From NCBI GenBank assembly GCA_036867785.1, contig CP145423.1:682001-746000 (forward strand): a stretch of DNA of 64,000 bases, given 5' to 3'. Both the position numbers and the translations under genes were made by a program. The notes below the pieces were generated by a model, which was not told the origin of the DNA, did no database searches, and saw only the letters and a list, made by a program, of their open reading frames with translations. This document shows positions 2,140-57,686 of this stretch, one piece after another (position 1 is the first letter of the stretch; each line of letters begins with the position of its first letter). Origin of the DNA: Plasmodiophora brassicae. Taxonomy: Eukaryota.

Positions 2140-3004
2140 GAAGTGTATTGCGCTGTTCCGTCCATCTTGATACCGACAACGTCTCCATATCCTCGGTTCG
2201 TGAAGAACATGGCCGCGAGTGGCGCCCATGTCGCGAACGCGTCCTGCGTGCCGTCGAACTTCGGGAACTGCGGCCGACCGGCGTCTGCACGACCAGACGT
2301 GTTGACGATCGGTGCATGGAGCGGAGCGGTCGACGCGGTTGGCGATGCCGTTTGCGGTGGCGGCGGCGGCGTCGGCGTGTCGGGCTGAGCCATCTGCAGC
2401 TGCATCGACCGGATCATGGCGATCTTCCTGGGCCGGTCAAGGGCGGCCTTGGTCTCTGCCAACATGGTGTCGAGATCTTGATCGGTCATGTCCATGTAGT
2501 CGTCATCGGGTGTCAGCGCCGACTGGCCCTCGGCCATGACGCGGAGCGCAAGTGGTCAGCGCTTTCGACTGTTAATCTGTGAGAGACAATAACGAAGTGT
2601 ATTGCGTACCGTGCTACATGCGTGACACCGGCACGGTGGACGTTACAGTGGCGGGCATGCCGCCGGCGAGGTAACGGCGCCTGCCAACGATGTGGACTGT
2701 AGACCGGACCGCCAACTAGGCCACGAGAGCATCTCACCGACGGGAGTTCGAGCCTCCTCGAAGTCCGCCGTGGACGGAGAGTTTTGGGGAGGATGTGTAG
2801 ATAGTACGGACGCGCCAGGCACGAGAGCAGGTCTGCGAGTCGTCTACAACGGTAGGCGGCGGACATCGCTCGACATCGAGGGGCTTGAGCTTCCTCGGTG
2901 AGATGTTTTGTAGACCGGACCGCCAACTAGGGGAGTTTTGGAGTGCGCGGCGGCGTTGGCGTGCTGCAGGGATGTGCTGCTGGTCGTGGACAAGTTGTTC
3001 GACA
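2140..3004 (-). mobile_element. Truncated, diverged Ty1/Copia: 5' LTR 2578-3004 (interrupted at 2698-2931), PBS 2567-2577, gag N-terminus from 2537
   Basis: MAEGQ...AGRPQFPKFDGT...NRGYGDVVGI aligns with the Copia gag at 21173. It has the same GATTAACAGTC PBS, and the LTR resembles 50991-51179. Confidence 0.85.
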
Positions 3005-4013
3005 GATACGAGGATGATCATGATCATGGTCCTGAGCAATTGTGGGCCCGGTTCTCAAATCATTGGGACCATTGCAACTGGTGTTCATGCAAGTCATGGA
3101 ATCAGTCAACCTGGTTGTTATGCGATCATGCAACTACGGTGTATGGCGCTCCTCTGAGAGGCCATCACGTTATTCGATGTGTAGAGCGGGGCTCTATTTA
3201 TAGCGTCTCGTTCCCTACATCAACGTGCTGCCACCTGACGGTCCTGGAACTATAGCACGATGACGTGGCGAGGCTGACGTCGTCGTGACGATGCGATCGA
3301 TAAACGTGATTCTGTTTTCCGTGTCATCGTTTGACGTCAAGAGTCTGCAGACACTGGACTACAGATGGGTAGTCACACAGGTGGCCTCATCAATATCGTT
3401 GTGTCACGGGACATTCGGCAGCATCCGTTAAGTCACTCGTCACCGCAGATTTGACTCTGGTCAGGGCGTTCTGACTATCGAGACTCTGTTGCGCTGGGGG
3501 CCCACGCACCTGTGTCGGCCGCTGAGCTAGGTGAATGATATTTTTCGGGTGTATATGGACCGGGCTCCACCCATCTGGGTCGAGCGCCCCATCGCCGATG
3601 TCTTCGTCATTTCTATCTCCATCTCGGCTAGTTCATGACGGTGGCTGTGGCAAGGGTGTCCGTAAATGGATTTTCCACAATTTTTTCCCATGGGGTTACA
3701 AGGTGGTTTTTAGTGAGTATTGGGTGATTCCGAGTCTCACACTACCCTTCGCCGTCTTCTCTATCTTCGCCGGGCACGATGATGATGTACTGGTTCCGGG
3801 CACGAGTTCGGAGAAAGGCAGTGTAGAGCGTGGCTCTATTTTTAGCGTCTCGTGCCCGACCCCAAGTTGCCCCTGTCCTGAGGAAAAGGGGGTCCTGCTG
3901 TCCAGAGGAAAAGGGGGCCTGCAAGGATTTAGCTCCATTGTGATGGCAGGGCCGACGCCGTGGATGGGATGGATGATAAAGCTCATTGGGATATTGGCTC
4001 GAGACTGACTACA
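3005..4013 (+). mobile_element. Gypsy family A 3' UTR, polypurine tract (PPT) and 3' LTR (3822-4013, A1 type)
   Basis: Homologous to 40790-41385. PPT GGAGAAAGGCAG precedes TGTAGAGC...GACTACA, which is a near-identical inverted copy of 16694-16885. Confidence 0.85.
3180..3363 (+). mobile_element. Solo LTR, Gypsy family A (A2 type), 4-bp TSD GATG
   Basis: TG...CA termini; matches LTR 34625-34834 with an internal deletion; GATG at 3176-3179 and 3364-3367. Confidence 0.9.
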
Positions 4014-6151
4014 GTGCCAGTGCCTCCAGCGAGACACATGATGGCGATGATGGTCGAATGCGCTTGAGCTCCTCGTTGGCAATATCGAGCCGCTCTTGCA
4101 GCGGTCGTACTATGCTTGCGTAGCCAGGTACATGGGTACGCATCCAGTTGGCCGCCCACAGAAACTGCTGCAGGTCCTTAGCGGTCTTCGGGCGTGGCAT
4201 GCTGGTCAGCGCCTCGATCCGTTTTGGATCATGCTGAACCCCATCTCGCGAGTATATCCTGCCGCACCACTTCAACTCGCGAGCGAACAACGTGCACTTG
4301 TTCGGGTTCAGCTTCAGGTTGCGCTCGCGACACCGCTCCAGCACCCGTGTCAGTTGATGAAGAAGATCTTCCTCCGACTTCGCGAATCCAAGTATGTCGT
4401 CAATCCAGATGAGCAAATTCTCCTTCATGTCGTCGAAGATAGCTGCCATTCGGGCATGGAACTGAACCGCCGAATTCATTCCTCCTTGAATGCTCCTCGT
4501 AGGCGTGAATACAGCGTCGTCCGTCATGAAGCTGAAGATTTCCTGACACTCCTTGGCCAAAGGCATCAGCCAGAAGCCCTTGAAAGCGTCAATCGTGAAG
4601 AAACAGGTCATGCCGGAGAGCTTGCGCGTAACAGACTCAACATTCGGCATCGGCCATGCTGTGGGAACACACCGTGCGTTCACCTGACGAAGGTCGACAC
4701 ATAGACGATAGCCATCGCCTTTGGGTTTCTTGACGACTAGGACTGGACTTGCCCATCGCGAGTTCATGTTCATGTAGACAAGACCGTTCTCCTTCAGCAT
4801 ACAGATCATGTCGTCTAGGAACTCCTTCTGCTTTGGATTGTAGAACCGAGGCTTGCACCGGTACGGAGTAGCGTCCTGCTTGAGTTGTGTTACCATCGGT
4901 TCGACATCGACAGGCTTATCTTGACCCAGACGCGTGCGGAATTCGTTCAGATGTCGTCGCAAGATCAGTCGTAGCTTAGCAACTCCTTGACGAGACATGC
5001 CGTTGAGACGTGCTTATTGTACCATCCGGTTACAGGAAGCTTCGATCTCGTGAGCATAGATCGGTCCCAAGTCAACTTCACTTGATGATGGTTCCATAGA
5101 GTCCAACTCTGGTACTGGGTAGTGATCTCCTCGTAACGATGCCATTCTCGCGGCAATTCGCCTCACGGTCTCGATACAATCGACATCGACTGCGGCACAT
5201 CCTGAGAGCGTATCCATCTCGGTGCATCCTGACGCGATGATGTTCTCGAGTTGCTGACGCGGATTGATGCCGAGAGTCGATAGCAGATTGTCACCGAACA
5301 AGATCACAGGAATCGTATCGCAGACGTAGTAGGTCACATGATACAGCGTCAAATTGCCAACTTCGGTCTCCAGGATCGTGACTGGAACTTGCACCGTTCG
5401 CGTTATCGTTCCGATAACTTTGCCTTCTGCTGAGGTGACGTCTCGTTGCTGAACGTCGCGGAATGTTGCCTCTTTCAACTGGACAGCGATGTGGCCAGGC
5501 ATGTTGCCCCCACGGCAGCCGGAATCCAACTCGTACGGAACACGTATGCCTTCCAGCACTACGCGTTGAAGATCATCGGCAGTCTCAGCTTATCCCCGGA
5601 TAGACTGAATGTGGTCCCTCATAGTCAGCAGACTGGTGTCCATCGACAGCTCATTCGCAATTTCGGCCTCAATGTCCTCACTCGTCAGGCCATGACTCAC
5701 GGGAAGCTTCTTGATGCGCGTTTCGGTCCATCCTTCCAGGTTGTCATCTGTCATCAGGTCGACATTGTTCAGGAACAGGTGTGACGTCCCAACGGTGATG
5801 GTATATCAGCCGTGTAGTATAATCGTCTGTCCCCGACCTGCAGCTCCCACGGACGCCGTGCGGACTCCGTGCGCACTCCGTGCATGTCCGTCATTCTTAG
5901 GGCGGCCTAGCCGGATCACAGCTATTCTTGTCTTATAGCTTGGAGCCGGCACATTCCCCTCCTTCAAAGAAATGCTCCTCCTTGCAGGTGTCTTCAGTGG
6001 TGGTGTATCCTAATCATGTCTTCTCCTTAATATAGTCTAATTAACATAATTAAGTCTCAATCTTCGTAGAACACAGTTTTGGCTTCTGTCGTCACATGGC
6101 CGTCGGCATTAAAATAACCCAGCGCGCATCCGGGAAAAAAGCATGACTAGC

Positions 6152-9100
6152 CTACTGGACTCCTTCCGCCTTAAGTAACTCCTTAACCTCATCAGCAAGG
6201 TGATGTTTCTCCTTCCTCATCCTGGCGGCATGGGCCTTCACCAGCTTCGGTACATCCATCGCCAACCTGCAGATTGGCTCCCATGAATCCTCCGCTTCAG
6301 AGAAACCCTTCCATCCGATCAACAATTCCAATTCCCCTGTCTCCGGACTGTGCCTGCAGTCCTTGAAGACTTCAATGGCGAAACGCTCATTGTCATAATC
6401 CATCTGTCGCTTCAGTTCCTCAGTGGCATTCACTTTGCCATGTTCATAGAGGCGAACGCGGTCCCCGTGAACGGTTCGAGTGTCCGTCTCATTGAACATA
6501 TTCCTCACCTCGTAGGTGTAGTTCTCGTGGCTATCAGTTATTTGATATAGGCCCCGCCACTTCATAAAGAGCTTCTTGCCCGGAACCTTACCCGGTTCAG
6601 GCAATCCGATGAGTACATAGTCACCGATCTGAAAGTTCGGTGCAGTTGCTCGTCGGTACGCGTCGCTCCTCTTCCTGTGTACGGCTCGGATTTTCTTCGA
6701 TTGCTGCACTGCTCCCTTGTGCATTTCATTCAGCGACGTCTGCAATTGCATGACTAGCTCCTGAATATGCTCCTTTGAGAGTGTAGCTTCCCCATACTTC
6801 TCATCCCCTGGCCTCTTGAACACTTGCTTCAGCGGGTTGTCTGGTGGACGTCCCATCATCACTGTCACTGGCGCATTCCCGTTGGTACGCGCCTGCGACC
6901 TGTGATTGATCGTGTGTTCAATGTTGTGGTTCAACCATGGCCAATCGTATTTGTCCCACTGCAATTCAGACAGAAGTGCTCTGACTAGTTGCAAGTAGTT
7001 CCTGTTGATCACCTCAATTGATCCATTACTGTAATGCCCATAGGCAACAGTCGGGTGATGAGCAAATCCACATCGACGCGCCAGTTCCTTCACAACGTTT
7101 GCCAGAAAGCAAGACGCCATGTCTGACACCATCAACCCAAACGTTCCGAAGATAGCCCTCCATTCGAGCAGTGCCTCTACAGTGGTTTCCGCATTGGGTG
7201 TATGGTCAGGAGTAATCTTGACCATGCCAGACAGATCATCCCTGATTATCAGGTTCCATTGCAGATCATGTCTTCCGCCCTTCTGAGCCGCCATCATGTA
7301 TAGCCAATCCAAGTGAATCACCTGATTCGGCCTAACACCATGAACAGCTGTTCCCAATGGCCTGGGAATCCTAACCCCGCCCCTTGTCGGTAGACAGTTC
7401 AAACACGCGTTGCAGAACGTCCTCATGTCCTCATCGCAGTGTGCCCAATGGCAGAACTCCCCCAACTTCCTCAACGAGGCCTTCAGTCCTAGATGCCCAC
7501 TGTTTCCGCCCGCATGAGCAATAGCGCATAGCTGCAGCTTCAGCTCGTTGCATTCGTCTGGTATGATCACCTGTCCCTTCCCTGTGACGAAGAGATCATC
7601 ACCATTCTTCGGTCGTTTCGTTCCTCTGAGCCATTTCCTCTGAGCCTTACGGATTTCGTCCACGGTCGGCCATTGGAATTCCTTCCTTTGTAACGGCCGT
7701 ACCCGATATCCGTCCTCAATTTGAAGCGTTATCCTCCTGATCGTGCGTACCTCTAGGTGCTGGTCATCAGGCCCACCGTCCGGTGCACCCCACCGCGTCA
7801 TAAGATCCGACCACACATTGTCCTCCCCCGCAATGTGTTCAATGACGTAGTTGACCCTCTGTATGTCCAGTGCCCATCGTTGCAGTTTCTGCGCCGTTGG
7901 CTTTGACACGTCCGTTGGTGAGAATATCCTCACGAGATTCCTATGATCGGTAAACAAACGAAACTGCTCGTTGGTTGTAACGAGATAGTCCAGTTTGTCA
8001 ATCCCATCCTTGATCGCGAACCCTTCCTTCTCCACCGTGGACCAGTTCCGCTCTGGGCCCGCGAACTTGTGTCCGACGAAACCCAGCGGTTCATGTCGCT
8101 GCCCATGCACTGGTTTACCCAAGTCCTCAGGCGGAATCTGTGTGACTACCGCCGCGCTGTTAACCTCATTTGCATCTGAGAATAGGCATTGGATCCGGTC
8201 CTTTCGCGGGTACGCTAGTTGGACCGTGTCCGCCACTGCCATCTTCAGTTTCTCGAATGCCAGCGCATGTTCGGGTGACCATCCATATTTGCACAATCGC
8301 ACCCTCCTGGCAATGGCTTTCGTCCTGCCAGGTTGGTCCTTCATTGCATCCTCGTATATCCTCTGTAACAGGTGTACCTTCCTGTTGTACTCAGGGATGG
8401 ACCTACTCATCCACTGAGTTGCCATAAGGAATTGTTGCAAGTCCCTTGCCGTTCTCGGCTGTGGTATCGCCATTAAAGCCTCAATCCTAGCAGGATCGTG
8501 CCTTACCCCTTCTGGCGTGAATATCCTTCCACAGAACCGAACCTCTGTTGTGAAGAGCTCACACTTCTCCACGTTGAACTTGATGCTGTGCCGTTCGGCT
8601 AGCATCAGAGTCCGTTCCAACGTTCGGAACCAATCATCCTCCCTTTGGGCATGCCCCATTAGATCATCGATCCATATGATTAGTTTGTGGAACATAAGTT
8701 CCCCGAACACCTCAAACATCCTCCCTTGATACTGAGGGGCGGAGTTCATTCCCCCCTGCATCGACCTCGTTGGCTTATACACCCCCTTATCTGTCATGAA
8801 GGAGAAGATCTCCTGACACGCTTCATCCAGCGGCATCATCCAGAAGCCTTTGAACGCGTCTAGCTTAAACCAGAACCTCGAGCCTGCCAGGTTCCTCAGT
8901 ATCGCCTCCTGATGTGGCATAGGCCACGCCACGGCGACACATTTGGCATTAACAGCTCTGAGATCAACACAGAACCGCTTTCCGCCCCCTGGCTTCGTCA
9001 CCACCACCACCGGTGAAGCCCACTTCGCGTTGTAGTTTTCAACGACTAGGCCATACTTCTTCAATTGGGCGACGAATTCCTCCATGAAAGCACTGTCCTC

Positions 9101-10249
9101 CATACTGTACTTTCTGGCTCGGCACCTGTAAGGTTCCGCATCCGGTTTCAGCTCCGTGACAAATGGTGTAACCCTGGCTGGACCATCAGGTCCAATGCTC
9201 ATACGCCAAACGTCCCTATATCTTCTGACGAGTTTCCGAAGCGATTTCCCCATCGCTTGCGGTAGGCCATTCCTCAATGCGCGCTCGACCATCCCGTCCA
9301 TCTCCCTTTCCAGGGAGTCTGTGGAATCGGTTCCGATCCTCACATCCTCTGTTTCCTCTTCCTCCCCTTCCCAGAGAGGTGGCATCTCGTTTGCCATATT
9401 GTGCACTTCATCCATGACGTCATTCCCCTTCTTCGGCGTGCTCTTAATGAGTACGTCCAGGGCCTTCTTTGGGCGGATACCCAAGTCGTCCAACAGCCTC
9501 TCCCCTAGGATTATTTCCTTTTCAGGAATGTCCCATACAAGGCATCGGCGCCGGCGAGTGATCAGTTCGCCTGCCGTCGTCGTCAGTCCCAGATCCAGTA
9601 TCATCACATGGTAGGCTGTGTGCTTCGTTTCTCTGTCTACCAGACAGAACGTTTCCGGCTTCTGGAGGTTCTCCATTGTTAACAATGGGTCCCGCTCCAT
9701 TAGCTCGCGCGCTATGGTCAATGGCATCAGAACGTCAACCGATGTCGCTCCACTGTCCAGAACCCCAACGTAGTCTTCCTCATGTCCGTTTACACGAACG
9801 ACTACTTGGTCCCCTGTCCTCTGCGCCCCCTCCGACACTCTTCCTACCACTGGAAGCCATGGGTACTCTGACAAGTCGTCATCTTTATCAGATTTGGCCT
9901 TACGGGGTCCATCCCTTCCCGTTGGCCCCTTGCGGCGATCCTTCAGCAGGTCTGCGACCTGCTTCTTGGTAGGCTTCTTCGGGCAACGAAACGCTGGATG
10001 TCCAACCTCGTCACAGTTGAAACATCGCAGGTCCTTCCGGTGTCGTTTCGTGTCCCGGCCTCCATCGCCTCCCTCATCCGTCTGCGCCCCTCGCTTCCTC
10101 GGGGTGGGTTTGACCTTTCCCTTCCCCTTGCCATCCTCACGTCCCGGCTCCATGTACAACATCGTCTCCTCATACGATGCAGCTCGTTCCTTCAGCACCC
10201 GATAGAATTCCAAAGGGTCCTTCTGGAGATCGGTCTGGCGCTTCATGAC
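6152..10249 (-). CDS. pol: Element E gag-pol, C-terminal part: CCHC knuckle, LDSG protease, WIDD RT, RNase H, HHCC/DDE integrase, chromodomain
   Basis: CFNCDEVGHPAFRC, VLDSGAT, IIWIDDLMG, FTDHRNL, LIGWKGFSEAEDSWEP. It continues in frame from the gag part at 16160-15591. Confidence 0.9.
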   Translation of the reverse strand, partial: VMKRQTDLQKDPLEFYRVLKERAASYEETMLYMEPGREDGKGKGKVKPTPRKRGAQTDEGGDGGRDTKRHRKDLRCFNCDEVGHPAFRCPKKPTKKQVADLLKDRRKGPTGRDGPRKAKSDKDDDLSEYPWLPVVGRVSEGAQRTGDQVVVRVNGHEEDYVGVLDSGATSVDVLMPLTIARELMERDPLLTMENLQKPETFCLVDRETKHTAYHVMILDLGLTTTAGELITRRRRCLVWDIPEKEIILGERLLDDLGIRPKKALDVLIKSTPKKGNDVMDEVHNMANEMPPLWEGEEEETEDVRIGTDSTDSLEREMDGMVERALRNGLPQAMGKSLRKLVRRYRDVWRMSIGPDGPARVTPFVTELKPDAEPYRCRARKYSMEDSAFMEEFVAQLKKYGLVVENYNAKWASPVVVVTKPGGGKRFCVDLRAVNAKCVAVAWPMPHQEAILRNLAGSRFWFKLDAFKGFWMMPLDEACQEIFSFMTDKGVYKPTRSMQGGMNSAPQYQGRMFEVFGELMFHKLIIWIDDLMGHAQREDDWFRTLERTLMLAERHSIKFNVEKCELFTTEVRFCGRIFTPEGVRHDPARIEALMAIPQPRTARDLQQFLMATQWMSRSIPEYNRKVHLLQRIYEDAMKDQPGRTKAIARRVRLCKYGWSPEHALAFEKLKMAVADTVQLAYPRKDRIQCLFSDANEVNSAAVVTQIPPEDLGKPVHGQRHEPLGFVGHKFAGPERNWSTVEKEGFAIKDGIDKLDYLVTTNEQFRLFTDHRNLVRIFSPTDVSKPTAQKLQRWALDIQRVNYVIEHIAGEDNVWSDLMTRWGAPDGGPDDQHLEVRTIRRITLQIEDGYRVRPLQRKEFQWPTVDEIRKAQRKWLRGTKRPKNGDDLFVTGKGQVIIPDECNELKLQLCAIAHAGGNSGHLGLKASLRKLGEFCHWAHCDEDMRTFCNACLNCLPTRGGVRIPRPLGTAVHGVRPNQVIHLDWLYMMAAQKGGRHDLQWNLIIRDDLSGMVKITPDHTPNAETTVEALLEWRAIFGTFGLMVSDMASCFLANVVKELARRCGFAHHPTVAYGHYSNGSIEVINRNYLQLVRALLSELQWDKYDWPWLNHNIEHTINHRSQARTNGNAPVTVMMGRPPDNPLKQVFKRPGDEKYGEATLSKEHIQELVMQLQTSLNEMHKGAVQQSKKIRAVHRKRSDAYRRATAPNFQIGDYVLIGLPEPGKVPGKKLFMKWRGLYQITDSHENYTYEVRNMFNETDTRTVHGDRVRLYEHGKVNATEELKRQMDYDNERFAIEVFKDCRHSPETGELELLIGWKGFSEAEDSWEPICRLAMDVPKLVKAHAARMRKEKHHLADEVKELLKAEGVQ

Positions 10250-13200
10250 TGTGCTAACGCCGCCGCTGCCCACTACGGGGGCGGTCGGTCGCAAGAGTCG
10301 GCGCCTGGTGATATAACGAACTGATGTATTTGGACAGGATCGTCACAGCAAGGGCCGCTGCGGGGTCGAGTACGGTCATGATCATGTGACCGGGTGGCAG
10401 CAGCATCTGAGCAGCATCATCTGAGTACTGGTACTCTGGATGAACACTCCCCGTGTTAGAAATCTGCTAACAGTCGTGAGCAGAGCGGGTCTCCTTCGGC
10501 TTGTCGTTCGAGGAAGGCCCTGACGATATCAGGAACATCGGCCGCCATGACCGAGTAAGGTTCCCATGAATTGTCGGTGGCATCGAATCCGATCCAGTTG
10601 ATCAGTAGTTCAGTGTCACCTGACGTAGAATTGACTCGAATGTCCTCGACTGCGTTGACTTGGTAAGCCACGCCGGTGAGCGCGATGTTGTGCTTCAGGG
10701 AAGAGGTGACATTCAAGTGCGCATCTGCATAGAACATTAAGCGCTGGGCGTGTACATCTGAGATATGATCAGTCAAGAGATCTCGAACTCGATACACCCA
10801 GTCGTTGATGGTGTCGATAATCTGGGCAGGTCCAGTCCAGTTGTACTCGGACTTGGAGTGCTTGCCATGGTTGGCCACGAGAACATAGTCGCCCGTCGTG
10901 AAGTTGATCTCGCGAACATTGCGTCGGCGACGCCGGGCGCGTTGCTTGAGATCACGTAGATGGGTGCGTGTACGTGCCACTTCTTTGTGCATGTCCTCGA
11001 GAGAATCGATAAGTTCCGTCGTCATTTCCTTGAGACGGTCAGGGGTCAACGGTACGTCGATAACCGCGTCGATGCGTTTGTTGAAGATAATCGAGATAGG
11101 TGTCGAGGGTGGCAAACCCGTAAACATCGTGACAGGCGCGTAGCCCACACTTGATCGAACAGTGTGATTTACCGTCATGTTGATCAGCGGAAGGACATAC
11201 GGCCAATCCTGGAATGGAAGATTTAGCTCGGAGAGGAGGGACTTCAGCAGAAAGAGAAGCCGCTTGTTGACAACCTCAACCGTGCCGTTCGCCCAAGGTG
11301 TGTAGGCAGTTGTGAAATGATGGTTGCAGTGTAACCGGCTATTAAGCTCGGCGATAACCGCGTTTTTGAAGTGTGTGCCGCGGTCAGAGACATGTTGGAA
11401 AACAATGCCGAAACGTTTGAACCAATCCAGAAGAGATTCGGCGACAACGCTGTGATCCGCGAATTGACAAGGAATTAACTCGACGAATGCCGTGGCGTCG
11501 TCCTTCAGAACCAGAACATAACGAAGTTGATGAGAATCGCCTGGACGAGGTTTGGATAAGAACAGAAAGTCATAGTGGATGACCTTATTGGGCTTGTCCG
11601 CATGCATAGCCGTGCCAAAAGGTCGGGGAATCATCGAATCTTTGTTGCGTAGGCAGTGTAAGCATTTGTCCACAAATGCACGAACAAAGGAATCCAGATC
11701 AGGCCACCAGAAGAGTTGTGCGATGCTCGAAATAGTCGATGCAGCAGGTTGATGACCAGACAGTCCCATATGTGAAATCACTGCGATGCGTAGCTGCAGT
11801 GCATGTGATGGTACCCAGAGTTGATTGTCTGGAGTACGCCAGCCAGATTCCGGGCTAAGGTGGAGAGACATGTCCCCTTCGAGTTGGAGAATATCGGAAA
11901 CGGCAGATAGGTCGTGTTGGCGAATGTAGTCGGTCTGAGCGTTACTAATCTCGTCGACAGACGGCCAGATAAACTCATCGGTCATCTTGTAATCGTCGAA
12001 GTCAAGATTAATTGCCATATGACGAATAGAACGGAACGATGGAGGGGAAAATGAGGAGAGTGGTTGCAGGGCGACGCCCCACCGCGTGGCGAGGTCGGCC
12101 CAAACGTTGTCCTCCCCAGCAATGTGCTCAATGTGAAAATCTAGGTCGATAATCTGAAGTCGCCAGCGCTCCAAGCGATCGCCGGTCGTCCGACTAATTC
12201 GTGCAACCGAGGCTGGGTTCAGAATGAAAACCAAATTACGGTGGTCTGTGAAGATTCGAAGTGCCAGCTTTGACATAGAGATGAAGTGTCTGAGGCGATA
12301 GCAGCCTTCAATGATGGCGTAGGCCTCCTTCTCAATGGTCGCCCACTTCAATTGAGAACCACGGAATGTCCCCGAGATGAACGACAAAGGTTCGTGGTGT
12401 TGCTCACCGTACGGGAGATCAATATCTTCCGGAGGGATCTGCGACAGGAAAACAGACCAGAAACGGTCACTCGCATCCGGAAAGAGACACATGATCCATT
12501 CGTCCTTGGGGTGCGCCAGCGTCATGGCCTCCGATAGTCGATGCTTCAGAGAATTGAAACTGGTGAGATGGTCAGTGGTCCAGCCGATGTCGGCTAAACG
12601 AACTCGACGTAGGTGTGATTTCTTCAGACTGCTGACAGAACGAGAAGCGGACAGAAGTAGATCCTGTAGCGGATGAACATGTGCCGCGAATTGAGGGATA
12701 ACAGAACGGACCCAATTGAGGCCCGAGAGGAACTGTTGGAGATCAGCAGCCGTGATAGGAGTTGATAGATCGTGCAAGGCGTTGAGATACGAGCGATCGA
12801 ACGACACTCCATCAGCGGATATAACGCGACCGCACCATGTCACTGAAGTGAGATATAACTGGCAGCGATCAGGGTTGAGTTTAACTCCAAACTCGTCGAA
12901 AGCGTTGAGAAGAGATTCGAGTGTGTCCATGTAGGCTCCGAATCCAGATACGTAGCCGAGGATATCGTCGATCCAGAGTAGGGCGCAGATATATAGAAGT
13001 TTCCCCAACACCTGTTGCATTCCCGCCTGGAACGCAAACACGCAATCAGCGATTCCCTGGATGATGCGCCTGGGTGTAAACGTGGCGATGTGCGTCATGA
13101 ACGAGCAGGCCTCCTGCGAATCAGGGTGCAACGGAAATTGCCAATAGCCTTTAAAGGCATCGAACAGCATGAAGATGGTCGCGGAACGTAGGTAGGTCAG

Positions 13201-15585: not shown

Positions 15586-15590
15586 ATGAC

Positions 15591-16160
15591 GAGGGTCCGC
15601 ATGAGCGCTTGTAAACCGGATGGGCGCACAGCACCCAGTAGGTACTTGACCAGGTTCTTCCGTCCCTCGCGGGACGTGAAGAGGTCCTGCCACCCGTTGC
15701 GCGCGACCAATTCCTCGTACTGCTGCACGAGGTTCACGACCCTTGCCGCTGGTGTGGTGATGGTCAGCTTCATCGCCAGCTTCCGCATCTCCCGGTCGAT
15801 GTTCGCGTCCGTCGAGCGATCCTGCTCCAGATGCCTCTTCATCCAGTCCATCAGGTCGCTCTCCGTCACCCCCTCGGCGTCCTTGCCGAGTTCCCACTTG
15901 CAGATCGCCCTGAGCAGACCGGGGTCGATCATACTCCTCACTGACCGCGGGATCTGGCCCTTGGCGTTCGGATCGTCCCGGAAGTGATTCCGATACGTCT
16001 TCAGCTCGGCCATGAACGTCGTGACGGCCTTGCGGTCCATGCTCTTCAAGGTCGGCGCCTTGTTCATCTGCAGGACGATCGTTGAGCCTTGCACGCTCTG
16101 TCCTTGTTGTCGATCATCGACGTCATCTTCCAGCAGCATCTCCTGCGCGGTGGCCACCAT
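15591..16160 (-). CDS. gag: Element E gag, N-terminal part
   Basis: Near-identical to 62060-62630. It joins 10249 in frame (…RTLVMKRQTD…) once D is removed. Confidence 0.85.
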
Positions 16161-17149
16161 CGCGTCCTTCTTTGAAACCTTCCCCGAAAGGATGTTCAAG
16201 AGATCTCTGTGACGTCCCAACGGTGATGGTATATCAGCCGTGTAGTATAATCGTCTGTCCCCGACCTGCAGCTCCCACGGACGCCGTGCGGACTCCGTGC
16301 GCACTCCGTGCATGTCCGTCATTCTTAGGGCGGCCTAGCCGGATCACAGCTATTCTTGTCTTATAGCTTGGAGCCGGCACACAGGTGATTCAAAGCAATG
16401 CATGTCAGCTGCGGCGTCGTAAAACAGAACCGAATCGCTTGAGGCTTGACCCTCGCGGCTTCCGTGCGGTTGCCCTCACGGTCAATGACAACTGCACAAT
16501 AGCGATCATACTGCTCTTTCAGCTTCAAGATCGACGTGGAGTCCAACTTCGCGACCCGTGGCAGGATGCTGACATCCGCGTCCTTGACACCAATATGCTC
16601 GTCCGTGCTGGACGTCGTCTCCGATGCCATGGCGCAGCGTCTCGAACGTGGTGCGGACGAAGTCAGACGTGTGGGATCAGACAGAGTGCGCACTGTAGTC
16701 AGTCTCGAGCCAATATCCCAATGAGCTTTATCATCCATCCCATCCACGGCGTCGGCCCTGCCATCACAGTGGAGCTAAATCCTTGCAGGCCCCCTTTTCC
16801 TCTGGACAGCAGGACCCCCTTTTCCTCAGGACAGCGGCAACTTGGGGTCGGGCACGAGACGCTAAAAATAGAGCCCCGCTCTACAGACGAAATCTTTGCA
16901 TAGCGGGGACATAATTTTTGCATGACGGGGAACAAATTGAACGATGACGATTTGTCTGTCTGAAACCGATAGCTGGAGCGTTAGGTGCGTGCGCGTGGCG
17001 GCGACGCAGCGCACAGTGCCATGGGCGCCCGCCGCGTCCCGCAGAACGCACATGTGCGTCGAAGAACTGCTCGACGATGTCTTTAGTCAGTCGTGAACAA
17101 CCAAACACATCACGAAGATGCTGGCAGCGGCTCGTGTAAACTCCTCATA

Positions 17150-20315: not shown

Positions 20316-20385
20316 TGTAGACCGGACCGCCAACTAGGCCACGAGAGCAGCTGCTCTCGTGGCCTAGTTGGCGGTCCGGTCTACA
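20316..20385. mobile_element. 70-bp perfect palindromic insertion, TGT..ACA ends, 4-bp TSD CTCC
   Basis: 35-bp arm plus its exact reverse complement. Removing it restores IEHIPGE|KNVWTDLQTRWG. Confidence 0.9.
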
Positions 20386-28400: not shown

Positions 28401-28612
28401 CTCTCTCTGGTGACTATTGTCAGTCTGGTTTATTTCGGGCCGTCTGGCCTCACTGTGACGACAGAGCAAGATGTGTCAACCACACGGATTGACCGACTGA
28501 GGTCGGTCCAACGCCGTGGACGTTTATTGTAGTAGTGCGCTGCGGAGGAGCCCAATTAGGTGCCGGCTGAGTCGCCAAGACAGCGACTCGACCGTGACAT
28601 AATAGTCCCCTT

Positions 28613-33942: not shown

Positions 33943-33957
33943 AGCTGCGATGATACA

Positions 33958-43700: not shown

Positions 43701-43711
43701 CAGTGCCAGTC

Positions 43712-46700: not shown

Positions 46701-47207
46701 TGTAGTCCCGTGTCTGCAGACTCTTGACGGCACGTAATGACATAGAAACAGAATGACGTTTATCGATCGCATCGTCACGACGACGTCAGCCTCGCCACGT
46801 CATCGTGCTAAATCGGGGCACGCAGTTTGTCTAAATATAGTCCAGGACCGTCAGGTCAGGTGGCAGCACGTTGATGTAGGGAACGAGACGCTATAAATAG
46901 AGCCCCGCTCTACACTGCCTTTCTCCAAACTCGTGACCGGAATCATCGGTGAGCACGTAGTACGTAGATGGTGAAGTTGACAGAAGGTAGTGTGAGACTC
47001 GGAATCACCCAATACTCACTAAAAACCACCTTGTAACCCCATGGGAAAAATCGGTGGAAAATCCATTTACGGACACCCTTGCCACCAAACACCATCGGTG
47101 CAACGAAGACATAAGCGATGGTGCGCTCGACCCACATAGGTGGAGCCCGGTCCATATACATCTGGAAAGTATCATTCACCTAACTCAGCGGCCGACCCAC
47201 ATAGGTG
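46701..47207 (-). mobile_element. Gypsy A-family 3' LTR (46701-46914), PPT and part of the 3' UTR
   Basis: Reverse complement of 41095-41454 and 34625-34834. Confidence 0.88.
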
Positions 47208-50200
47208 TGTCGAGGATCATGTCGTACCACCGGCACACGGTGACACCGTGACAGTGCGCGACTGCGTAACGTCCTCGGCAGAGGCTCCGCCACTGACGCC
47301 GTTGTCGGTAACGGCTTGGCAAGCCCCTGTTACACAGCGTTACATCGCCACCGTCTCGCGCCGATGTCGGTCGGAATAAATCACTTCGTTATCGTCTTCA
47401 TCAGATTAACAGTCGTAAGCGTTCTGCGCGCTTCGAGGCGGTGAGCCCACCGGCGCCCCGCGCGCCGGTGCCATCCAGTGCCAGTCCCGCGTCACTGCGT
47501 CTCTGCCCTGACCCTGCTTCTGCACAACGCGCCACGAACGCCCGCTCGAGTCCGCGCCACGCGCAAGAGAGTCCAGGCAGATCGCGCCAGCAAGGCAGGC
47601 CGTCATTAAGGGGAAATCCAGAACCAGTACCGGGACGTAAGCGCCAGGCGTACGCCGGTCGTACGGGCCTCAATCGCTCGCCTCAATCGCTTCGCAAGAT
47701 AGCGTTGTCCGTCGGCGCAATCCGCGTCGACGTCGTTATAAGCCAGATCCAACACCCTGCGTGTCATCGTCGACCCCGCCTCAGCAAATTGCGCCATTCA
47801 TGTCACCTCTAGCTACGCCACGATCCGTCTCGTGCCGCGTCAACGAGCCAAGGCATACGAGCACGTGCAAGGCCGTGTTGTTCATGATCCAGAGTCAAAG
47901 GTCCAGCCGGGACACATCCGTTCGACCGTCTTCCGCATGCAACCGCGTGCCGTTGGAGGGGGCGTGTCAAGGACCATGTCGTACCACCGGCACACGGTGA
48001 CGCCGTGACTGTGCGCGACTGCGTAACGTCCACGGCAGAGGCTCCGCCACTGACGCCGTTGTCGGTAACGGCTTGGCAAGCCCCTGTTACACAGCGTTAC
48101 GTCGCCACCGTCTCGCGTCGATGTCGGTCGGAATAAATCACTTCGTTATCGTCTTCCTCAGCAGCATCCCCTCCCGAGCCTCCGTCACCTGCCGCTGCGT
48201 CATCGCCTTCCGAGGTCGTCCGACCGTCGCGCTCACCGTCTCCTGATGAGGTATCCACCGACGAAGATGATGATGACGCTGAAGATGATCCCGACTACGA
48301 AGGTTCGGCGTCCAGCAACGACTCTCCCAACGAAGCTGCCGATCCCGACGTCCACGACAATTCCGATGCTGCTGATATCGTCGACCACAATGTCATCGAC
48401 GTGCCACGCCCTCGCCGATCGAATCGTCGTCGTCAACCGCCTGGTGAATGGTGGAAGGCGCCGGAGGCGGCCAATCGTTCGTCGACACGGTGGTCCTCGA
48501 CGGTCGACGCCTGGTTCCAGAATCCGACCCTAACGTCCCCGACACAGCGCCCTCCTCGTCGCTCCCGCCGACTGATCCGGCATTGGCAGCAGGTTGAGGA
48601 GCGCCGTCTGATCGATCAGGCCATCAGGTCCAACCGTCCGACATGTCGCGGCGCCGCTGCCAAGGCATGTCGAGCCAAGGTATCCGCCCCGATCGACCCA
48701 GCCCGTCTACCACGACCCGACCTGTCGAAGCTGAAAGCGACCGACATTCCCGTACCCAACTCAATGGCCGATGCCCTCTCATCACCTTTCGCTGGCCACT
48801 GGTGGGACGCCGCCGTCACCCAGATGGCAACACTGGACGCCAAGGACACGTTCGGCCCGCTAATCGACCTGCCGAAAAGTAAGATCGCTGTTGGCGCCAA
48901 GTGGGTGTTCCGAGTGAAGTCCTCGCTCAGTGGCAACGGTGGCATCCGCAAGTTCACCGCCCGACTCTGTGCTCAGGGCTTCCGACAACGCCCCGGCATC
49001 GACTTCGACGATACGTTCGCGCCGACCGCCCGTGCCACTGCGTTCCTCGTTATCCTAGCGCTCGCGGCGCAGCACGGCCTGCATCTTCGCCAGGTCGACT
49101 GGGTGGCCGCATACCTGAACGCCGACATGCTCCATGATGTTTACATTCGTCAGCCGGATGGCTTCACCGATCATCACGTCCCGTACCGAGTTCGTCAACT
49201 GCAAAAGGCCCTTTATGGAACGAAACAAGGCGCCGAACGTTGGTACAAGACGCTTCGGGAGATGCTGTTATCACTCGGATTCGAATCGATCATCGCGGAC
49301 CCCTGCGTCTTCCGGTACGATCGCGATGGAAAGTTCATGATCATGTCGGTGCACACCGACGACGGTCTGCTGGCGTACAATGACGTCCCGTTCGCGGAAT
49401 CCGTTCTCGAGAAGCTCTCCACGATGGCCGAGATCACCGATCAAGGTGAACCGTCGACCCTGCTTGGCATGCGCATCCGACGCGAACCTGGCACCGGCGC
49501 CATCACCCTTGACCAAGCCGAGTACATCGAGAAGGTGTTGAGCGACTTCAACATGTCGCATTGTCATCCGGTCGACACGCCGCATCAGCCTGGCGTTCAC
49601 CTATCAACGACAATGAGTCCACAAAGCGACCTCGACCGCGACGAAATGGCGACCAAGCCGTACCTCAAACTTATTGGCTGCCTGACATGGCTCGCCCATC
49701 GATGCCGTCCCGACATCGCGTACATAACGAATGTACTGGCCCAATTCTCCTCGAATCCCGGCATCCAGCATTGGCGTGCGGGGCAACGCGTTCTTAAGTA
49801 CCTCGCCGGCACCATGACGCACGGCATCCGATACGAACGCCAGCCCGAAGATCGTCTGATCGCATACGCCGACGCTGATTGGGCATCCGGCCCTGACACG
49901 CGACGGTCGCGCTCCGGCCACATCATCCTGCTGGCTGGCGGCCCCGTGCACTGGCAGTCACGTCGCCAAGACCTGGGCGCAGTCAAAGTTAGCTTATCGT
50001 CCACACATGCAGAGATCAAGTCGCTGTGTGCTGTTACCCGCCAACTGGCCTGGATCCGGTCATTCCTGACCGAAATCGGCTTCGCACGCTCCAGTCCGAC
50101 GATCGTATACGAGGACAATCAAGGCGCGAAGGCCTGGTCTGGCTATCGTCGGATGGATGATCGCACGAAGGACATCGAGGTGCAGTTTCACTACACCCGG

Positions 50201-50990
50201 GAGGCCGTCGAGGCCAGTTTGATCGTGGTCCACAAGTGCCCGTCCGCCGAGATGGCTGCAGACTACCTCACGAAGCCCGCTCTCAGCACCTCGTATCATG
50301 CGAACCTGCTCCTGGCCGGCATCATCGACACAAGTCCCAGGCCGTGTGCTGCTGGAGGGGGCGTGTCGAACAACGTATCCACTACGACCAGCAGCACATG
50401 CCTGCAGCACGTGAACGCCGTCACGCACTCCGCGACTCCGTGCCCGCCGGCGTTGGCAACCGTTACACCGTCGGCGACTACGTCGCCACTGTAACGTCCG
50501 CCGCACACGCCGTACGTAATACATCCACTCCATTATTGTCTTACAAACTGCGTGCCCCGATTTAGCACGATGACGTGGCGAGGCTGACGTCGTCGTGACG
50601 ATGCGATCGATAAACGTCATTCTGTTTTCCGTGTCATCGTTTGACGTCAAGAGTCTGCAGACACTGGACTACAACCGTCGCCGGCGGGTCGGGTCCCAGC
50701 TTAGTTCGAAATACGTTCCAATACCTGAAGGCTAGCTTCGTGAGCTTTCTTCTCCACCATCGTGGAAGCCCGTTGCTGATGGATCGGCCGATCGCTTCTC
50801 TGATGCCTTCACGTATGTCCTCTGGAATGATGTCTCCTATTTCAACATCGTCGTACATCTGATCATCAGTTAGCGATTCGTTGTCGCTGGTTGCTTGCTG
50901 ATTCGCGATCAGATGCTCCAGAGCTGAGGCTGGATCTATTCCAAGGTCCTCAAGCAAATCGAGACCCAAGTAGATATGTTCTGCCGGCAC

Positions 50991-53900
50991 TAAGGAAGAC
51001 AATAGCGAAGTGACGTGTATTACGTACGGCGTTTGCGCAACGGCACGGTGGACGTTACAGTGGCGACGTAGTCGCCGACGACGTAACGGCTGCCAACGGC
51101 GGCGAGCGCGGAGTTTCGGAGTGCGTGACGGCGTGCTGCAGGCATGTGCTGCTGGTTGTACTGGACATGTTGTTTGACACGCCCCCTCCAGCAGCACACG
51201 CCCTGGTACCGGTGTCGATGATGCCGGCCAGGATCAGGTTCGCGTGATAAGAAGTGCTGAGGGCGGGCTTCGTCAGGTAGTCGGCGGCCATCTCGGCGGA
51301 CGGGCACTTGTGGACCATAATCAGACCGGCCTCGACGGCCTCTCTGGTGTAGTGGAACTGGACCTCGATATCCTTCGTTCGATCGTCCATCCGACGGTAG
51401 CCAGACCAGGCCTTCGCGCCTTGGTTGTCTTCGTGTACGATCGTCGGGCCGGGACGCGGGAAGCCGATCTCCGCCAGGAACGACCGGATCCAGGCCAGCT
51501 GACGGGTAACAGCGCAGAGCGATTTGATCTCAGCGTGTGTTGACGACAGACTAACCTTAACGGCGCCTAGGTCCTGGCGTCGCGACTGCCAGTGCACGGG
51601 ACCGCCGGCCAGCAGAATGATATGACCGGAACGGGAACGTCGCGTGTCCGGATCCGAGGCCCAGTCGGCATCGGCGTAAGCGACCAGGCGATCCTCGAGT
51701 TGCCGTTCGTATCGAATGCCGTGCGTCTTCGTGCCGGCGAGGTACTTGAGGACGCGTTGCCCCGCACGCCAATGCTGTATACCAGGATTCGACGAGAACT
51801 GGGCCAGCACGTTGGTGATATACGCGATGTCGGGACGGCACCGATGGGCGAGCCATGTCAGACATCCGATCAGCTTCAGGTAAGGCTTGTTCGTCATTTC
51901 GTCCCGTTCGATGTCCGTCTGTGGACTCATCGATTTCGTCAGGTGAACGCCAGGTTGATGTGGCGTGTCGACCGGGTGACAATGTGACATGTTGAAGTCG
52001 CTCAACACCTTGTCGATGTACTCGGCCTGGTCGAGCATGATGGCGCCGGTGGCAGGTTCGCGACGGATGCGCATGCCGAGCAGCGTCGATGGTTCGCCCT
52101 GATCCGTGATCTCGGCCATCGTGGCGAGCTTCTCGAGGACGGCCTCTGCGAAATCGACGTCGTTGTACGCCAGCAGGCCGTCATCGGTGTGCACCGACAT
52201 GACCATGAACTTGCCATCGCGATCATATCGAAGACGCACGGGTCCGCGATGATCGGTTCGAAGCCCAGGGACAGCAGCATCGAGCGAAGCGTCTTGTACC
52301 ACCGTTCGGCACCTTGCTTCGTACCGTATAGGGCCTTGCGTAGTTGGCGAACGCGATATGGGACGTTGTTATCAGTAAACCCATCGGGCTGGCGCATGTA
52401 GACGTCGTGGAGCATATCGGCGTTGAGGTAGGCGGCCACCCAATCAACCTGTCGAAGATGCAGCCCGTGTTGGGCTGCGAGCGCAAGGATGATGAGGAAT
52501 GCGGTGGCGCGAGCTGTCGGTGCGAATGTGTCGTCAAAGTCAATGCCGGGGCGCTGTCGGAAGCCCTGAGCGCAGAGACGAGCGCTGAACTTACGGATGC
52601 CACCGTCGCCACTGAGCGCTGACTTGACCCGGAACACCCACTTGGACCCGACAGCGATCTTACCTTTGGGGAGATCAACGAGCGGGCCGAATGTGTCCTT
52701 GGAATCGAGCGTCCCCATCTGCGAGACGGCGGCGTCCCACCAGTGGCCGGCGAACGGCGATGACAATGCCTCGGCCATCGAGTCGGGTACAGGGATGTCG
52801 GTCGCTTTAAGGCTCGACAGGTCCGGTCGCGGTAGACGGGCTGGATCGATCGGCGCGGGTACTCTAGCACGACATGCCTTGGCGGCGGCGCCGCGAGCGG
52901 GATTGCGGTTGGACCGTATGGCTTGATCGATCAGACGTCGCTCCTCGACCTGTTGCCAATGGCGGATTTGTCGGCGTGATTGACGAGGAGGGCGCTGCGT
53001 GATGAAGACGATAACGAAGTGATTTATTCCACTGACATCGGCGCGAGACGATGGCGACGTAACGCAGTGTAACAGGGCTTGCCAAAGCCGTTACCTGCAA
53101 CGGCGACGGTGGCGGAGCCTCTGTTGTGGACGTGACACAGCCGCGCACAGTCACAGCGTCATCGTGTGCCGGTGGTAGGACATGGTCCTCGACACTGCGT
53201 CGGTGGCGTTAGGGTCGGACTCTGGAACCAGGCGTCGACTGTCGAGGACCACCGTGTTGACGAACGATTGGCCGCCTCCGGCGCCTTCCACCATTCACCC
53301 GGCGGTTGACGACGACGACTCGATCGGCGGGGACGTGGCACTTCGATGGCATTGGGATCAACATCAGCTTCGGCGGCATTATCGTGGACGACGGGATCGG
53401 CAGCTTCGTTGGGAGAGTCGTTGCTGGACGCCGAATCTTCGTAGTCGGGATCATCTTCAGCGTCATCATCGTCTTCGTCGGTGGATACGTCGTCTATGCG
53501 GGCATTCAGAACGTCGGCTGACCGAGAAATGTGGCAGGCGCCGTCAGGCGCACGGGCGTCCGCGTTCTGGGACGCAGGGTCAGGAGACGGTGAACGTGAC
53601 GGTCGGACAATCTCGGAAGGCGATGACGCAGCGGGAAGTGAAGGAGGCTCGGGAGGGGCTGTTGCGATAGAGGATGCTAACGTCGATGGTAGAGGTGCCA
53701 TGATGGCGTCGGAAGAGATGGGCGTCGGGACGATCGTGTCAACGTTCGGCGCAGGGCTCGACTCGGGACTGGATGGTGGCGCTGATGATGAACTGGCCGA
53801 GGCCGATCTTCCAAAACCGAATGTGAACGAGTTCTCCAGGAATTCGGCAGTCGTGCTCTCGAACGTGTCTTCGCGGTCCACGTCGTAGAACCGCCACGCC

Positions 53901-56526
53901 TTCATGCCGGGCGTGAAACCGATGAACACAGCGCGAACACGACGAGGCTCCAACTTGCTCGGCTTCTTCGTGGCTGGATGTGGTCGCATGGCATAGGCAT
54001 CGCAACCGTAGACACGAAGGGCCGAGATGTTAGGTAGGGCGCGACGAGCTGCCTCGAACGATGTGCGACGTCCGGGAAGGACGGATCTCGGGTGGATGTT
54101 GTACAGGACGGCAGAGTAGGACAGCGGCCAGGGCCACGTGGAGTCGGGCATGTGGGCATGACACCGGATCGATAGCTCGATGCAACAGAGCGTGTAATTG
54201 ACGCTCTCGGCGCGGCCTATCTGTTCCGGTGTGTACGGGACCGACTTGCGGTGCAGGATGCCGGACGTGCTGTAGAACAGGACGCATGCCTTCGAGTTGA
54301 ACTCGCCGCCACCGTCGGTCTGGAAGTCCCCGATACCTCGCCCTTCCTGATTGCGAAGGCGCGCGTCGTAGTTCTTAATGACATCGAGGGCGTCCGATTT
54401 GCGGCGAAGCAGGTAGACCGTCAGGTAGCGCGTGGAGTCGTCCAGCATCGTCTGGTAGTACTCGAAGCCGCCAATGCCGAAAACGGGCCACCGACCGGAT
54501 AAGTCGCTGTGCACGAGATCGCCGACACGAAGTGCCCGCGACTTACTCGGAGGAAATGAGGAACGCTTACCTTTGACGAGGAGGCAGGCTTCGCATGGGC
54601 ACCGGTCCGAACGCTTGGGAATGGGGCCGTCGAATTTCATGCCACGACAGCGGTTCCGCAGGATGTTCAGATTGCCATAGCCGAGATGGCCGGTTCGTGC
54701 GTGCCACAGATCGGGAGATGCAACGGTGACCTTTTCGGCGCGACAGGCGATGTCGGATACGATCAGGGAACAGGCTGGTACAGTCGGTTGCGTGTTGTTG
54801 GTGGATGGAGCTGATAGTGCGATCCGGTACAGGTTGTCTTGTCCACGGGTGCTGATCGCCACTGGCTGCCCGGTGGGTGCCGTCCAGCTGTCCTTCGAGT
54901 AGATGGTCGCGGTGGCGCCGTCGAATACGATCTTGTGGCCTGATCGGGTGAGTTGTCCGACTGAAACAAGCGCTTGACCAAGTCGTGGGACGTGCAGTGA
55001 GTCGATACTCATCGCCTGGGCATCCTTGCCGAATGACATCACGCCCCGACCGGACGTAGTCGTTCGCGACAAATCAGCTAGTTCGACTTCTGGTCCAGAG
55101 ACGCGTCGATAACGGCTGAGATGCTGGCGCAGGGGTGTCATCGTTGTGGAACAGGCCGAGTCCAATAGTCCCATTGAGCTCGCGCTCGCGTCGATGGAGT
55201 GGCGTGCCGACAATGCACGCGTTGGCTCGGATGCCGGATCTGTCGGGAGAGCGCCAGACGATGGATACTCGTGGGACGTTGGTGACGATGTATTGCTGTT
55301 GTTGTTGTTGTTGTTGTCTCGATGCCAGATGTGCCGCTGCAGGCTGCATTCGCCATTCGTATGCTTCGATCCCGGATGAAAGACGCAGGACTCGTTACGT
55401 CGAGGTCCACGGGTACGTGTCGACGTATTGCAGCTGGATCGGTTGGCCGTCTGGAACGATTCTTGTCGGTCCCGCACGTCTCGGATGCGAATCTCTTCGC
55501 TCGTCAGTGACGCAACGACCTCGGAGACACTGGGCAGCGTGTCCAGTGCACGGTTGTGCAGGCCGGCGACGACCGCGTCCAGGTCGGATGATGCATTGGC
55601 CAGAATGAGGACGGCAACCAGAGCGTCAGTAAGGGACAGCATTTCGGTCGGTACCGTTGCGCGGACGCGATGAGCTGCTGCTTGAACTCTGGCCGCGTAA
55701 GTGGCGACTGATTCGCCGGGCGTGTGCTGGATCGTGACGAGGTCGCGGATGGCGCGCACGACCGATGCCAGCGACGACGGGCTGTACGCCTGGAACAGCA
55801 CGCGCCAGCACTTGGCAGCCGATCCTGCTTGAAACAAGGACAACGCAGACGCGATCTTGTGATCCAGCATGTGGACGAGTAGAATCTCGCGCGCGGCCGC
55901 CTCCAGAGCTGGGTCGTCCGTCGTACCGGTTGTAGCGGTCGGCGAGCCATCTTCGTTGATCCCGATGACGTTCGCGTATCCACGGTTGCGGAGCCAGAGG
56001 GCCGCGGTCTGAATCCAGGACGTGAACGAGTCTGGCGTTCCATCGAACTTGGGCAGCGGTAGCCGACCTGCGTCGCTTCGGGTGTGCGCCTCGGCGACCA
56101 TCGGCACGGACGGGATCGGTGGACAGCTGGGCGGGCGCGCCAGCTGCTGCTGCAGGATTCGAAGACGGTCGATCTTCTCCTGCCTTGCGACCTTTGCCTC
56201 CGCTTCGGCTAGACGGATGTCGATCTCGTCGATCGTCAGGTGATTCAACGGGTCGTCATCCGCGTTCGGCGTCGGCGTCGCCTGGCGCTCGGCCATGACG
56301 AGTAGAGGTAAAGCGCCTGCGCCTACGACTGTTAATCTAAGGAAGACAATAGCGAAGTGAAGTGTATTACGTACGGCGTTTGCGCAACGGCACGGTGGAC
56401 GTTACAGTGGCGACGTAGTCGCCGACGACGTAACGGCTGCCAACGGCGGCGAGCGCGGAGTTTCGGAGTGCGTGACGGCGTGCTGCAGGCATGTGCTGCT
56501 GGGTGTACTGGACATGTTGTTTGACA
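50991..56526 (-). mobile_element. Full-length Copia subfamily 2; 189-bp LTRs 50991-51179 and 56338-56526; TSD GGCAC; ORF from 56296 disrupted by a solo LTR and a frameshift near 52230
   Basis: GGCAC at 50986-50990 and 56527-56531. All Copia domains are present, and I see two differences between the LTRs. Confidence 0.95.
53001..53194 (-). mobile_element. Solo LTR of the TRIM family (diverged), TSD CTGCG
   Basis: Similar to 44175-44370; CTGCG on both flanks. Confidence 0.9.
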
Positions 56527-57680: not shown

Positions 57681-57686
57681 GCATTC

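Follow-up and report, generated by a model that had tools for sequence, protein, structure and literature searches.

Priming of reverse transcription from the anticodon arm of a transfer RNA (tRNA) has been described only in Copia lineages of long terminal repeat (LTR) retrotransposons, which have switched the tRNA several times (PMC6317226, PMC10886601, PMC4139406, PMC5445492; statements taken from these four papers, here and below, refer to the accessible portions of their texts). The elements copia and Ty5 prime from the stem-loop bearing the anticodon in initiator tRNA-Met (tRNA-iMet) (PMC10886601, citing Kikuchi 1986 and Ke 1999; PMC6317226). Half-tRNA primers in plants are confined to Copia elements, with Osser, Bryco, and Gymco-II using 1/2 tRNA-Met and Bianca using 1/2 tRNA-Ile, and tRNA-Asn appears in the accessible part of that survey only among the 3'-end primers (2% of elements) (PMC6317226). 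The fungal element FunCo1 uses an internal region of tRNA-Lys (PMC5445492); Candida albicans families carry primer-binding sites (PBSs) homologous to internal regions of tRNA-Arg(UCU) and tRNA-iMet, several families sharing a site (PMC4139406); and rust-fungus Copia and Helenus elements use the anticodon loops of several tRNAs, tRNA-Asn-GTT having been chosen once (PMC10886601, the text of which names 'tRNA-Asp' and 'tRNA-Asn-GTT' for seemingly one class). Published cases of anticodon-arm priming involve iMet, Arg, Ile, Lys, and Tyr and, apparently, Asn-GTT in rust fungi. Here we describe a block of 11–17 nt that recurs in a 64-kb stretch of the genome of Plasmodiophora brassicae, the rhizarian pathogen causing clubroot (contig CP145423.1, positions 682,001 to 746,000; this whole stretch is hereafter the window), and that is most likely the minus-strand PBS of one Ty1/copia lineage and of a dependent terminal-repeat retrotransposon in miniature (TRIM), pairing with the anticodon arm of cytoplasmic tRNA-Asn(GUU).

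Like those of copia and Ty5, the PBS described here abuts the 5' LTR, lacks TGG, and is complementary to an anticodon stem-loop, implying a 3'-truncated primer; unlike them, it would engage tRNA-Asn(GUU) instead of tRNA-iMet, in a rhizarian host, with an implied primer 3' end at position 40, the likeness considered here being that of the PBS. The 3' end of the copia primer lies at position 39. An original prediction, made from the letters of this stretch alone, had invoked internal tRNA-iMet priming of copia and Ty5, in agreement with PMC10886601, and had quoted GATTAGAAGTC, the presumed letters of a Candida site, as analogous. Internal priming by tRNA-Arg(UCU) in Candida is borne out (PMC4139406), and GATTAGAAGTC is complementary to the tRNA-Arg(UCU) arm (human Arg-UCU probe, PMC8062790), having the same geometry as the present block and differing from it only at the three anticodon positions, that is, in favor of a different tRNA.

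The arrangement of the rust-fungus elements is worth comparing in particular, because there too an autonomous Copia element and a small non-autonomous LTR element have an anticodon-loop PBS in common, with 5-bp target duplications (PMC10886601). In contrast to Helenus, whose LTRs contain a tRNA-like RNA polymerase III part, no Rfam family reaches its gathering score in this window, and the hosts are fungal and rhizarian, respectively; this comparison is one of architecture and host. Internal tRNA priming characteristic of a lineage within Ty1/copia is likewise shared with the plant half-tRNA lineages and FunCo1, none of which, in the accessible texts, uses Asn. The TRIM resembles known TRIMs in its size (~950 bp), 196-bp LTRs, PBS, polypurine tract (PPT), 5-bp duplication, and tandem form, but differs from them in having a likely autonomous partner in the same window with which it shares only two cis-acting ends. 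It had been predicted that the primer would be an uncommon one, which is fair, although the single choice of tRNA-Asn-GTT in rust-fungus Helenus/Copia is a precedent. Besides PMC10886601, our literature search found no report of an anticodon-arm Asn PBS; it found none on primer sites of P. brassicae retroelements, and no retrotransposon paper was among the 19 literature matches to the motif strings. The present system is new in its tRNA and its host group, within an already known priming mode.

Position of the block at LTR junctions

The window is a nest of LTR retrotransposons. In it, the 11-mer GATTAACAGTC has eight exact matches, as compared with a mean of 0.71 and a maximum of 4 in 100 shuffles, and allowing one mismatch adds none; at two mismatches, the number of matches (15 vs 12.5 expected) corresponds to chance, the seven extras sitting in other elements. 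The sites start at 21130, 41639, 43629, and 47404 on the plus strand and occupy 2567-2577, 37447-37457, 44919-44929, and 56327-56337 on the minus strand, and all eight start at the first base past an LTR end (..TCA, ..TTA or ..ACA); every position at which the original prediction had placed the motif against a 5' LTR proved correct. The carriers belong to one related lineage and comprise four copia copies and four junctions of a non-coding TRIM (~952 bp). The conserved end of the unique 5' region (U5) of this lineage, CACTTCGTTATTGTC, lies just upstream of the site and occurs 14 times in the window (a 15th match at 11514, with 3 mismatches, is unrelated); the motif follows it directly at 8/8 5' LTR-to-internal junctions and at 0/6 3' or solo LTR ends. 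Since the motif stands after 5' LTRs and never after 3' or solo LTR ends, the block is located outside the LTR, where a minus-strand PBS belongs. All eight sites begin with GAT next to U5 and none with TGG, as a PBS of the 3' CCA type would, and no second PBS candidate was found between the LTR and the start of gag, ~30 nt downstream.

The 14-mer GATTAACAGTCGTA is common to six of the eight copies, with T, G, C or A as base 15. The extension to the 17-mer GATTAACAGTCGTACGC that had been noticed in two TRIMs is present, intact, at 37441-37457 and 44913-44929, the other two TRIM junctions each being one base off. The eight sites represent about four related families: copia A/B, copia C, an old copia at 2567, and the TRIM. 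The features of these elements are as follows.

20946-21129, plus strand: 5' LTR of copia A, 184 bp, TGTC...CTCA; truncation of the element near 25458
21130-21143, plus strand: PBS of copia A, the 14-mer GATTAACAGTCGTA
21173-25477, plus strand: open frame of copia A for gag, protease, integrase, and reverse transcriptase, 1434 amino acids, with 100% identity to a protein listed by NCBI for Plasmodiophora brassicae
41455-41638, plus strand: 5' LTR of copia B, with the PBS 14-mer next to it at 41639-41652; a TRIM composite interrupts the body of the element at 43433-48165
50364-50542, plus strand: 3' LTR of copia B, 179/179 identical to the 5' LTR, last 5 bp missing; preceded by the PPT GGAGGGGGCG at 50354-50363
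50991-56526, minus strand: copia C, complete, with LTRs at 56338-56526 and 50991-51179 (187/189 identical), target duplication GTGCC, and PPT GGAGGGGGCG
56324-56337, minus strand: PBS of copia C, 14-mer
36702-37653, minus strand: TRIM T1, 952 bp, with LTRs at 37458-37653 and 36702-36897 (196/196 identical), target duplication AAGGC, and PPT at 36898-36907
37441-37457, minus strand: PBS of T1, the 17-mer GATTAACAGTCGTACGC
44175-45125, minus strand: TRIM T2, 951 bp, LTRs 194/196 identical, target duplication GAACA, inside another copia fragment
44913-44929, minus strand: PBS of T2, 17-mer
43433-48160, plus strand: composite TRIM within copia B, with outer LTRs at 43433-43628 and 47965-48160 (196/196 identical) and target duplication GCAGC
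43629-43645, plus strand: PBS of the first unit of the composite, 17-mer with one change at the 12th base
47404-47420, plus strand: PBS after the middle LTR of the composite, 17-mer with one change at the 15th base
2578-3004, minus strand: 427-bp LTR, containing an internal duplication, from an old degenerate copia in this lineage
2567-2577, minus strand: PBS core (11-mer) of the old copia, the 13th base of the site being unlike that of the other families; a 163-amino-acid gag remnant frame lies at 2046-2537

The PPT GGAGGGGGCG precedes every 3' LTR of the lineage, and 5-bp target duplications flank four elements. With their near-identical LTR pairs, target duplications, and PPT, the elements are real and recently mobile. 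Both copia B and copia C show the anatomy of Ty1/copia elements (direct LTRs, PBS, and PPT, with a 5-bp duplication in copia C), and the copia A polyprotein has the Pfam domains Retrotran_gag_2 (133-271), rve (590-687), and RVT_2 (1108-1349), the integrase preceding the reverse transcriptase as in Ty1/copia; its nearest non-host matches are plant copia proteins at 31-35% identity. A solo TRIM LTR at ~53000-53195 divides the copia C frame. In the composite TRIM, a middle LTR is found at 47208-47403, and other insertions disrupt the first internal part at 43712. The TRIM copies measure 951-952 bp, have 196-bp LTRs, PBS, and PPT, and are without coding capacity; a coding TRIM was considered and rejected, as all three sense frames of T1 and T3 contain stops and the copies have no frame in common.

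All the TRIM copies are located inside other retroelements, one of them in the tandem form LTR-internal-LTR-internal-LTR and one as the solo LTR in the copia C frame. The terminal letters of the LTRs are ..TTA for copia C, T1, and T2 (56338, 37458, and 44930, minus strand) but ..TCA for copia A, copia B, and the composite TRIM (21129, 41638, 43628, and 47403, plus strand); the usual TG...CA rule thus fails in copies that retain near-identical LTRs and target duplications. A repeat of ~130 bp occurs at 50543-50673, 34704-34834, 46700-46830, and 3233-3363, the first copy starting exactly at the truncation of the copia B 3' LTR.

Conservation of the block

When the eight 5' LTRs and their leaders were aligned (309 columns, 77 invariant), AGATTAACAGTC was found to be an invariant run of 12 columns, the next longest run being one of only 4 columns. 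LTR identity between families is 77/189 to 106/188 (41-56%), with the exception of copia A versus copia C (153/177). Similarity between the TRIM and copia is limited to the last ~40 nt of U5 together with the PBS, and to the PPT together with the first LTR bases; these common parts are just the cis-acting ends that are indispensable to a non-autonomous element. The 14-nt limit of the shared block coincides with the point at which the anticodon stem gives way to position 26 of the tRNA.

Viral contigs were also scanned for the LTR end joined to the PBS 14-mer. At least 115 loci were obtained, with no copia homologue (tblastn) and no tRNA among the matches listed, and a stricter 17-nt pattern gave 4 loci, again with no copia homologue. 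The viral-contig matches are due to chance, in phage-like DNA.

Complementarity to the tRNA-Asn anticodon arm

The complement of the site consists of two stem bases, a 7-nt loop (pyrimidine-32, T33, GTT, and purine-37), and two bases pairing with the first two, and the complement of the 14-mer includes the remainder of the 5' strand of the anticodon stem. To compare this pattern with actual genes, metagenome contigs were scanned for the 15-mer TACGACTGTTAATCG, in which the stem is assumed to continue, and tRNAs were called by ARAGORN. At least 119 loci were obtained; among the 119 listed, the 15-mer lies inside a tRNA at 76, the remaining 43 being without a tRNA call. As many as 75 of these 76 tRNAs are tRNA-Asn(gtt), and the other one, with an intron-like insert, was called otherwise; in 28 of the 76, the letters are gcgtacga..., matching exactly the complement of the TRIM 17-mer at tRNA positions 24-40. 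By comparison, the 84 non-Asn tRNAs on the same listed loci have at most 7 nt in common with the site complement. Judged from these predicted genes, anticodon arms of this type are real and specific to Asn, and the originally predicted geometry of an anticodon stem, a 7-nt loop, and GTT is that of the arm (24/27-40) of real tRNA-Asn(GTT) genes.

Host tRNA and alternative explanations

On the host side, contigs of four sequencing runs that hold the elements (X3, X15, X16, and X19) were aligned to a metagenomic tRNA-Asn (L111:75-148) at 80% likeness. Run X16, with 17 Mb of contigs and 92% of the sampled words of copia present, contains a 154-nt contig covering tRNA-Asn positions 17-62 with 40/47 identical. 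The ends of this contig form a perfect 7-bp acceptor stem (one G-T pair), with a discriminator base and a T-run a few bases on, and by its sequence it is a eukaryote-type tRNA gene without encoded CCA. The pairing of stems with the unaligned ends places three of the seven differences beyond the anticodon arm, one of them within the D stem and two within the T stem. A C at position 23, corresponding to the 18th base of the TRIM site, is predicted by the D-stem 5' strand; this is a small independent point in favor of tRNA-Asn as the primer.

Several points weigh against pairing with the tRNA-Asn(GUU) arm. The other four differences of the X16 contig could fall in loops or in the anticodon arm itself, and the X3, X15, and X19 runs, which also hold the elements, gave no contig on the tRNA reference, which is no proof of absence. 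The 5' part of the X16 contig occurs in none of the 76 listed metagenome tRNA-Asn genes; the host gene is thus not among the listed matches, either because that listing is incomplete or because the arm differs. The 31-39 pair is G-C in some eukaryotes, and such a pair in the host would disrupt the core match. The metagenome set, having been selected by pattern, attests to the existence of such tRNAs and not to their frequency. Moreover, the eight sites come from one lineage, so that their number is not independent support, and the 14-mer deviates internally in two copies (at base 12 in 43629 and at base 13 in 2567). What had been predicted, priming from a tRNA-Asn half, is partly supported, namely by the position of the PBS, its conservation, and its fit to tRNA-Asn(GTT) genes, whereas the host arm is not confirmed by the X16 contig with its 7 differences.

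It is conceivable, though unlikely, that the site is a PBS and yet the stem of the host tRNA-Asn differs (e.g., by G-C at 31-39), so that priming would involve imperfect pairing or another small RNA. The X16 contig, the only host-side tRNA contig (7/47 off the reference, at places that may include the arm), lends some weight to this explanation, as do its 5' part, unlike all 76 listed genes, and the three runs without a contig. The letters of the site itself, however, are consistent with a stem (the loop being preceded by GA and followed by TC) and with pyrimidine-32, T33, and purine-37, and no other Asn anticodon is in common use; furthermore, the block is intact in elements with identical LTRs, and the control non-Asn tRNAs share no more than the above-mentioned 7 nt with the site.

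A second explanation, which we regard as decidedly improbable, is that the block is kept for another cis function (packaging, dimerization or a translation signal) or by mere descent, its likeness to an anticodon arm being coincidental. All the carriers are indeed related, and the adjoining U5 end, CACTTCGTTATTGTC, is conserved as well, so that descent explains a part of the identity. Nevertheless, the block is the only invariant run exceeding 4 columns, occupies the exact place of a PBS, is absent after 3' LTR ends, and has no alternative PBS beside it before the gag start, and an anticodon-arm geometry would be expected by chance in ~1/250 11-mers (a rough estimate, not computed). Finally, Tf1-type self-priming, in which the 5' end of the element's own transcript folds onto the site and is then cut into a primer, is known in LTR elements (PMC6317226, PMC5445492) and has a potential parallel in a neighboring gypsy family of the window with a 10-nt LTR complement, but is very improbable here and was rejected, since the longest exact complement of the 20 post-LTR nt in the own LTR is 6 nt or none in 8/8 copies, and since the window contains no complement of the 11-mer at one mismatch or fewer besides the sites themselves, the two-mismatch matches being at chance level and in other elements.

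Predicted priming mechanism

Priming from tRNA-Asn(GUU) is supported by the position of the block, its conservation, the anatomy of LTRs, PPT, and target duplications, the fit to real tRNA-Asn genes, and the lack of a self-primer. We infer, in addition, that the host's own tRNA-Asn carries this arm and is cut after position 40. In the predicted mechanism, the 14-mer shared by the families would pair with positions 27-40, which take in the anticodon stem's 5' strand and the 7-nt loop as well as two bases at the start of the 3' strand, and the 17-mer of the TRIM would extend this pairing to positions 24-26. Since position 40 lies opposite the base adjoining U5, it is C40 that must bear the priming 3'-OH, and the primer would consequently be a 3'-truncated tRNA-Asn (1-40), the cut falling in the anticodon stem's 3' strand, with a geometry resembling that of copia and Ty5 with tRNA-iMet. 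As for the agent of the cut, we speculate on general grounds that it might be the element's own RNase H, acting after annealing as in self-priming elements. The TRIM would borrow the machinery of the copia lineage.

In eukaryotic tRNAs, position 26 is frequently dimethylated, and this blocks both pairing and copying. By this general knowledge, the shared site may end at 14 nt owing to the modification of position 26. The full proposal that P. brassicae is the first rhizarian with half-tRNA priming, in which tRNA-Asn(1-40) serves an active copia/TRIM pair and the site stops at 14 nt because of a modification at position 26 that would permit neither copying nor pairing, is put forward tentatively, with slightly more doubt than confidence.

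Significance

The block provides a precise annotation of the predicted start of reverse transcription in those copia and TRIM families of P. brassicae that are currently mobile, and adds one tRNA and one eukaryotic supergroup to the few systems known to prime from an anticodon arm. It supports the view that Copia lineages change the primer tRNA while retaining the geometry of the cut. In practical terms, the 14-mer beside an LTR end may serve as a signature to find and classify these families together with their non-coding parasites, which are missed by protein-based repeat annotation. P. brassicae assemblies contain 11-14% repeats, in which LTR elements are dominant, according to the accessible part of a preprint (10.64898/2026.10.14.759018). 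If the full proposal is true, the mobility of the elements making up the variable, LTR-rich regions of the pathogen would be under the control of its 5' tRNA-Asn fragments.

Other features of the window

Ty1/copia polyproteins (Retrotran_gag_2, rve, and RVT_2) were identified by Pfam at 21173-25477 (plus strand), 41682-43604 and 48764-50494 (plus strand, two parts of one), 53159-56296 (minus strand), and 45177-46481 (minus strand), along with several chromodomain-bearing Ty3/gypsy elements. ARAGORN called no tRNA gene in the window.

Among the gypsy elements, G3 (LTRs at 28454-28599 and 34108-34253) and the related G5 (LTRs at 57309-57452 and 60119-60262) have a 10-nt self-complement in the LTR, formed between the 20 nt after the 5' LTR and a segment ~100 nt into the own LTR (34088-34253, minus strand, and 57309-57471, plus strand), and are candidates for Tf1-type self-priming, as judged from this complementarity. 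The other two, G1 (10249-15585) and G2 (5780-16381), each with identical LTRs, are without a TGG-type site after the 5' LTR (15346-15387 and 16166-16207, respectively, both minus strand), and no complement of 6 nt or more to their post-LTR sequence was found in their own LTRs. G1 is nested in the other gypsy element (5780-16381, minus strand), and the two LTR pairs (198 bp and 174 bp) are both 100% identical, pointing to very recent successive insertions. The short gypsy derivative at 57309-60262 (plus strand) has 144-bp LTRs that are 100% identical and a single frame of 850 amino acids with only a zinc knuckle and a protease, and looks like a recently moved deletion derivative. Lastly, an array of 22-bp tandem repeats (16 register copies) is found at 1239-1768, downstream of the old copia gag remnant.

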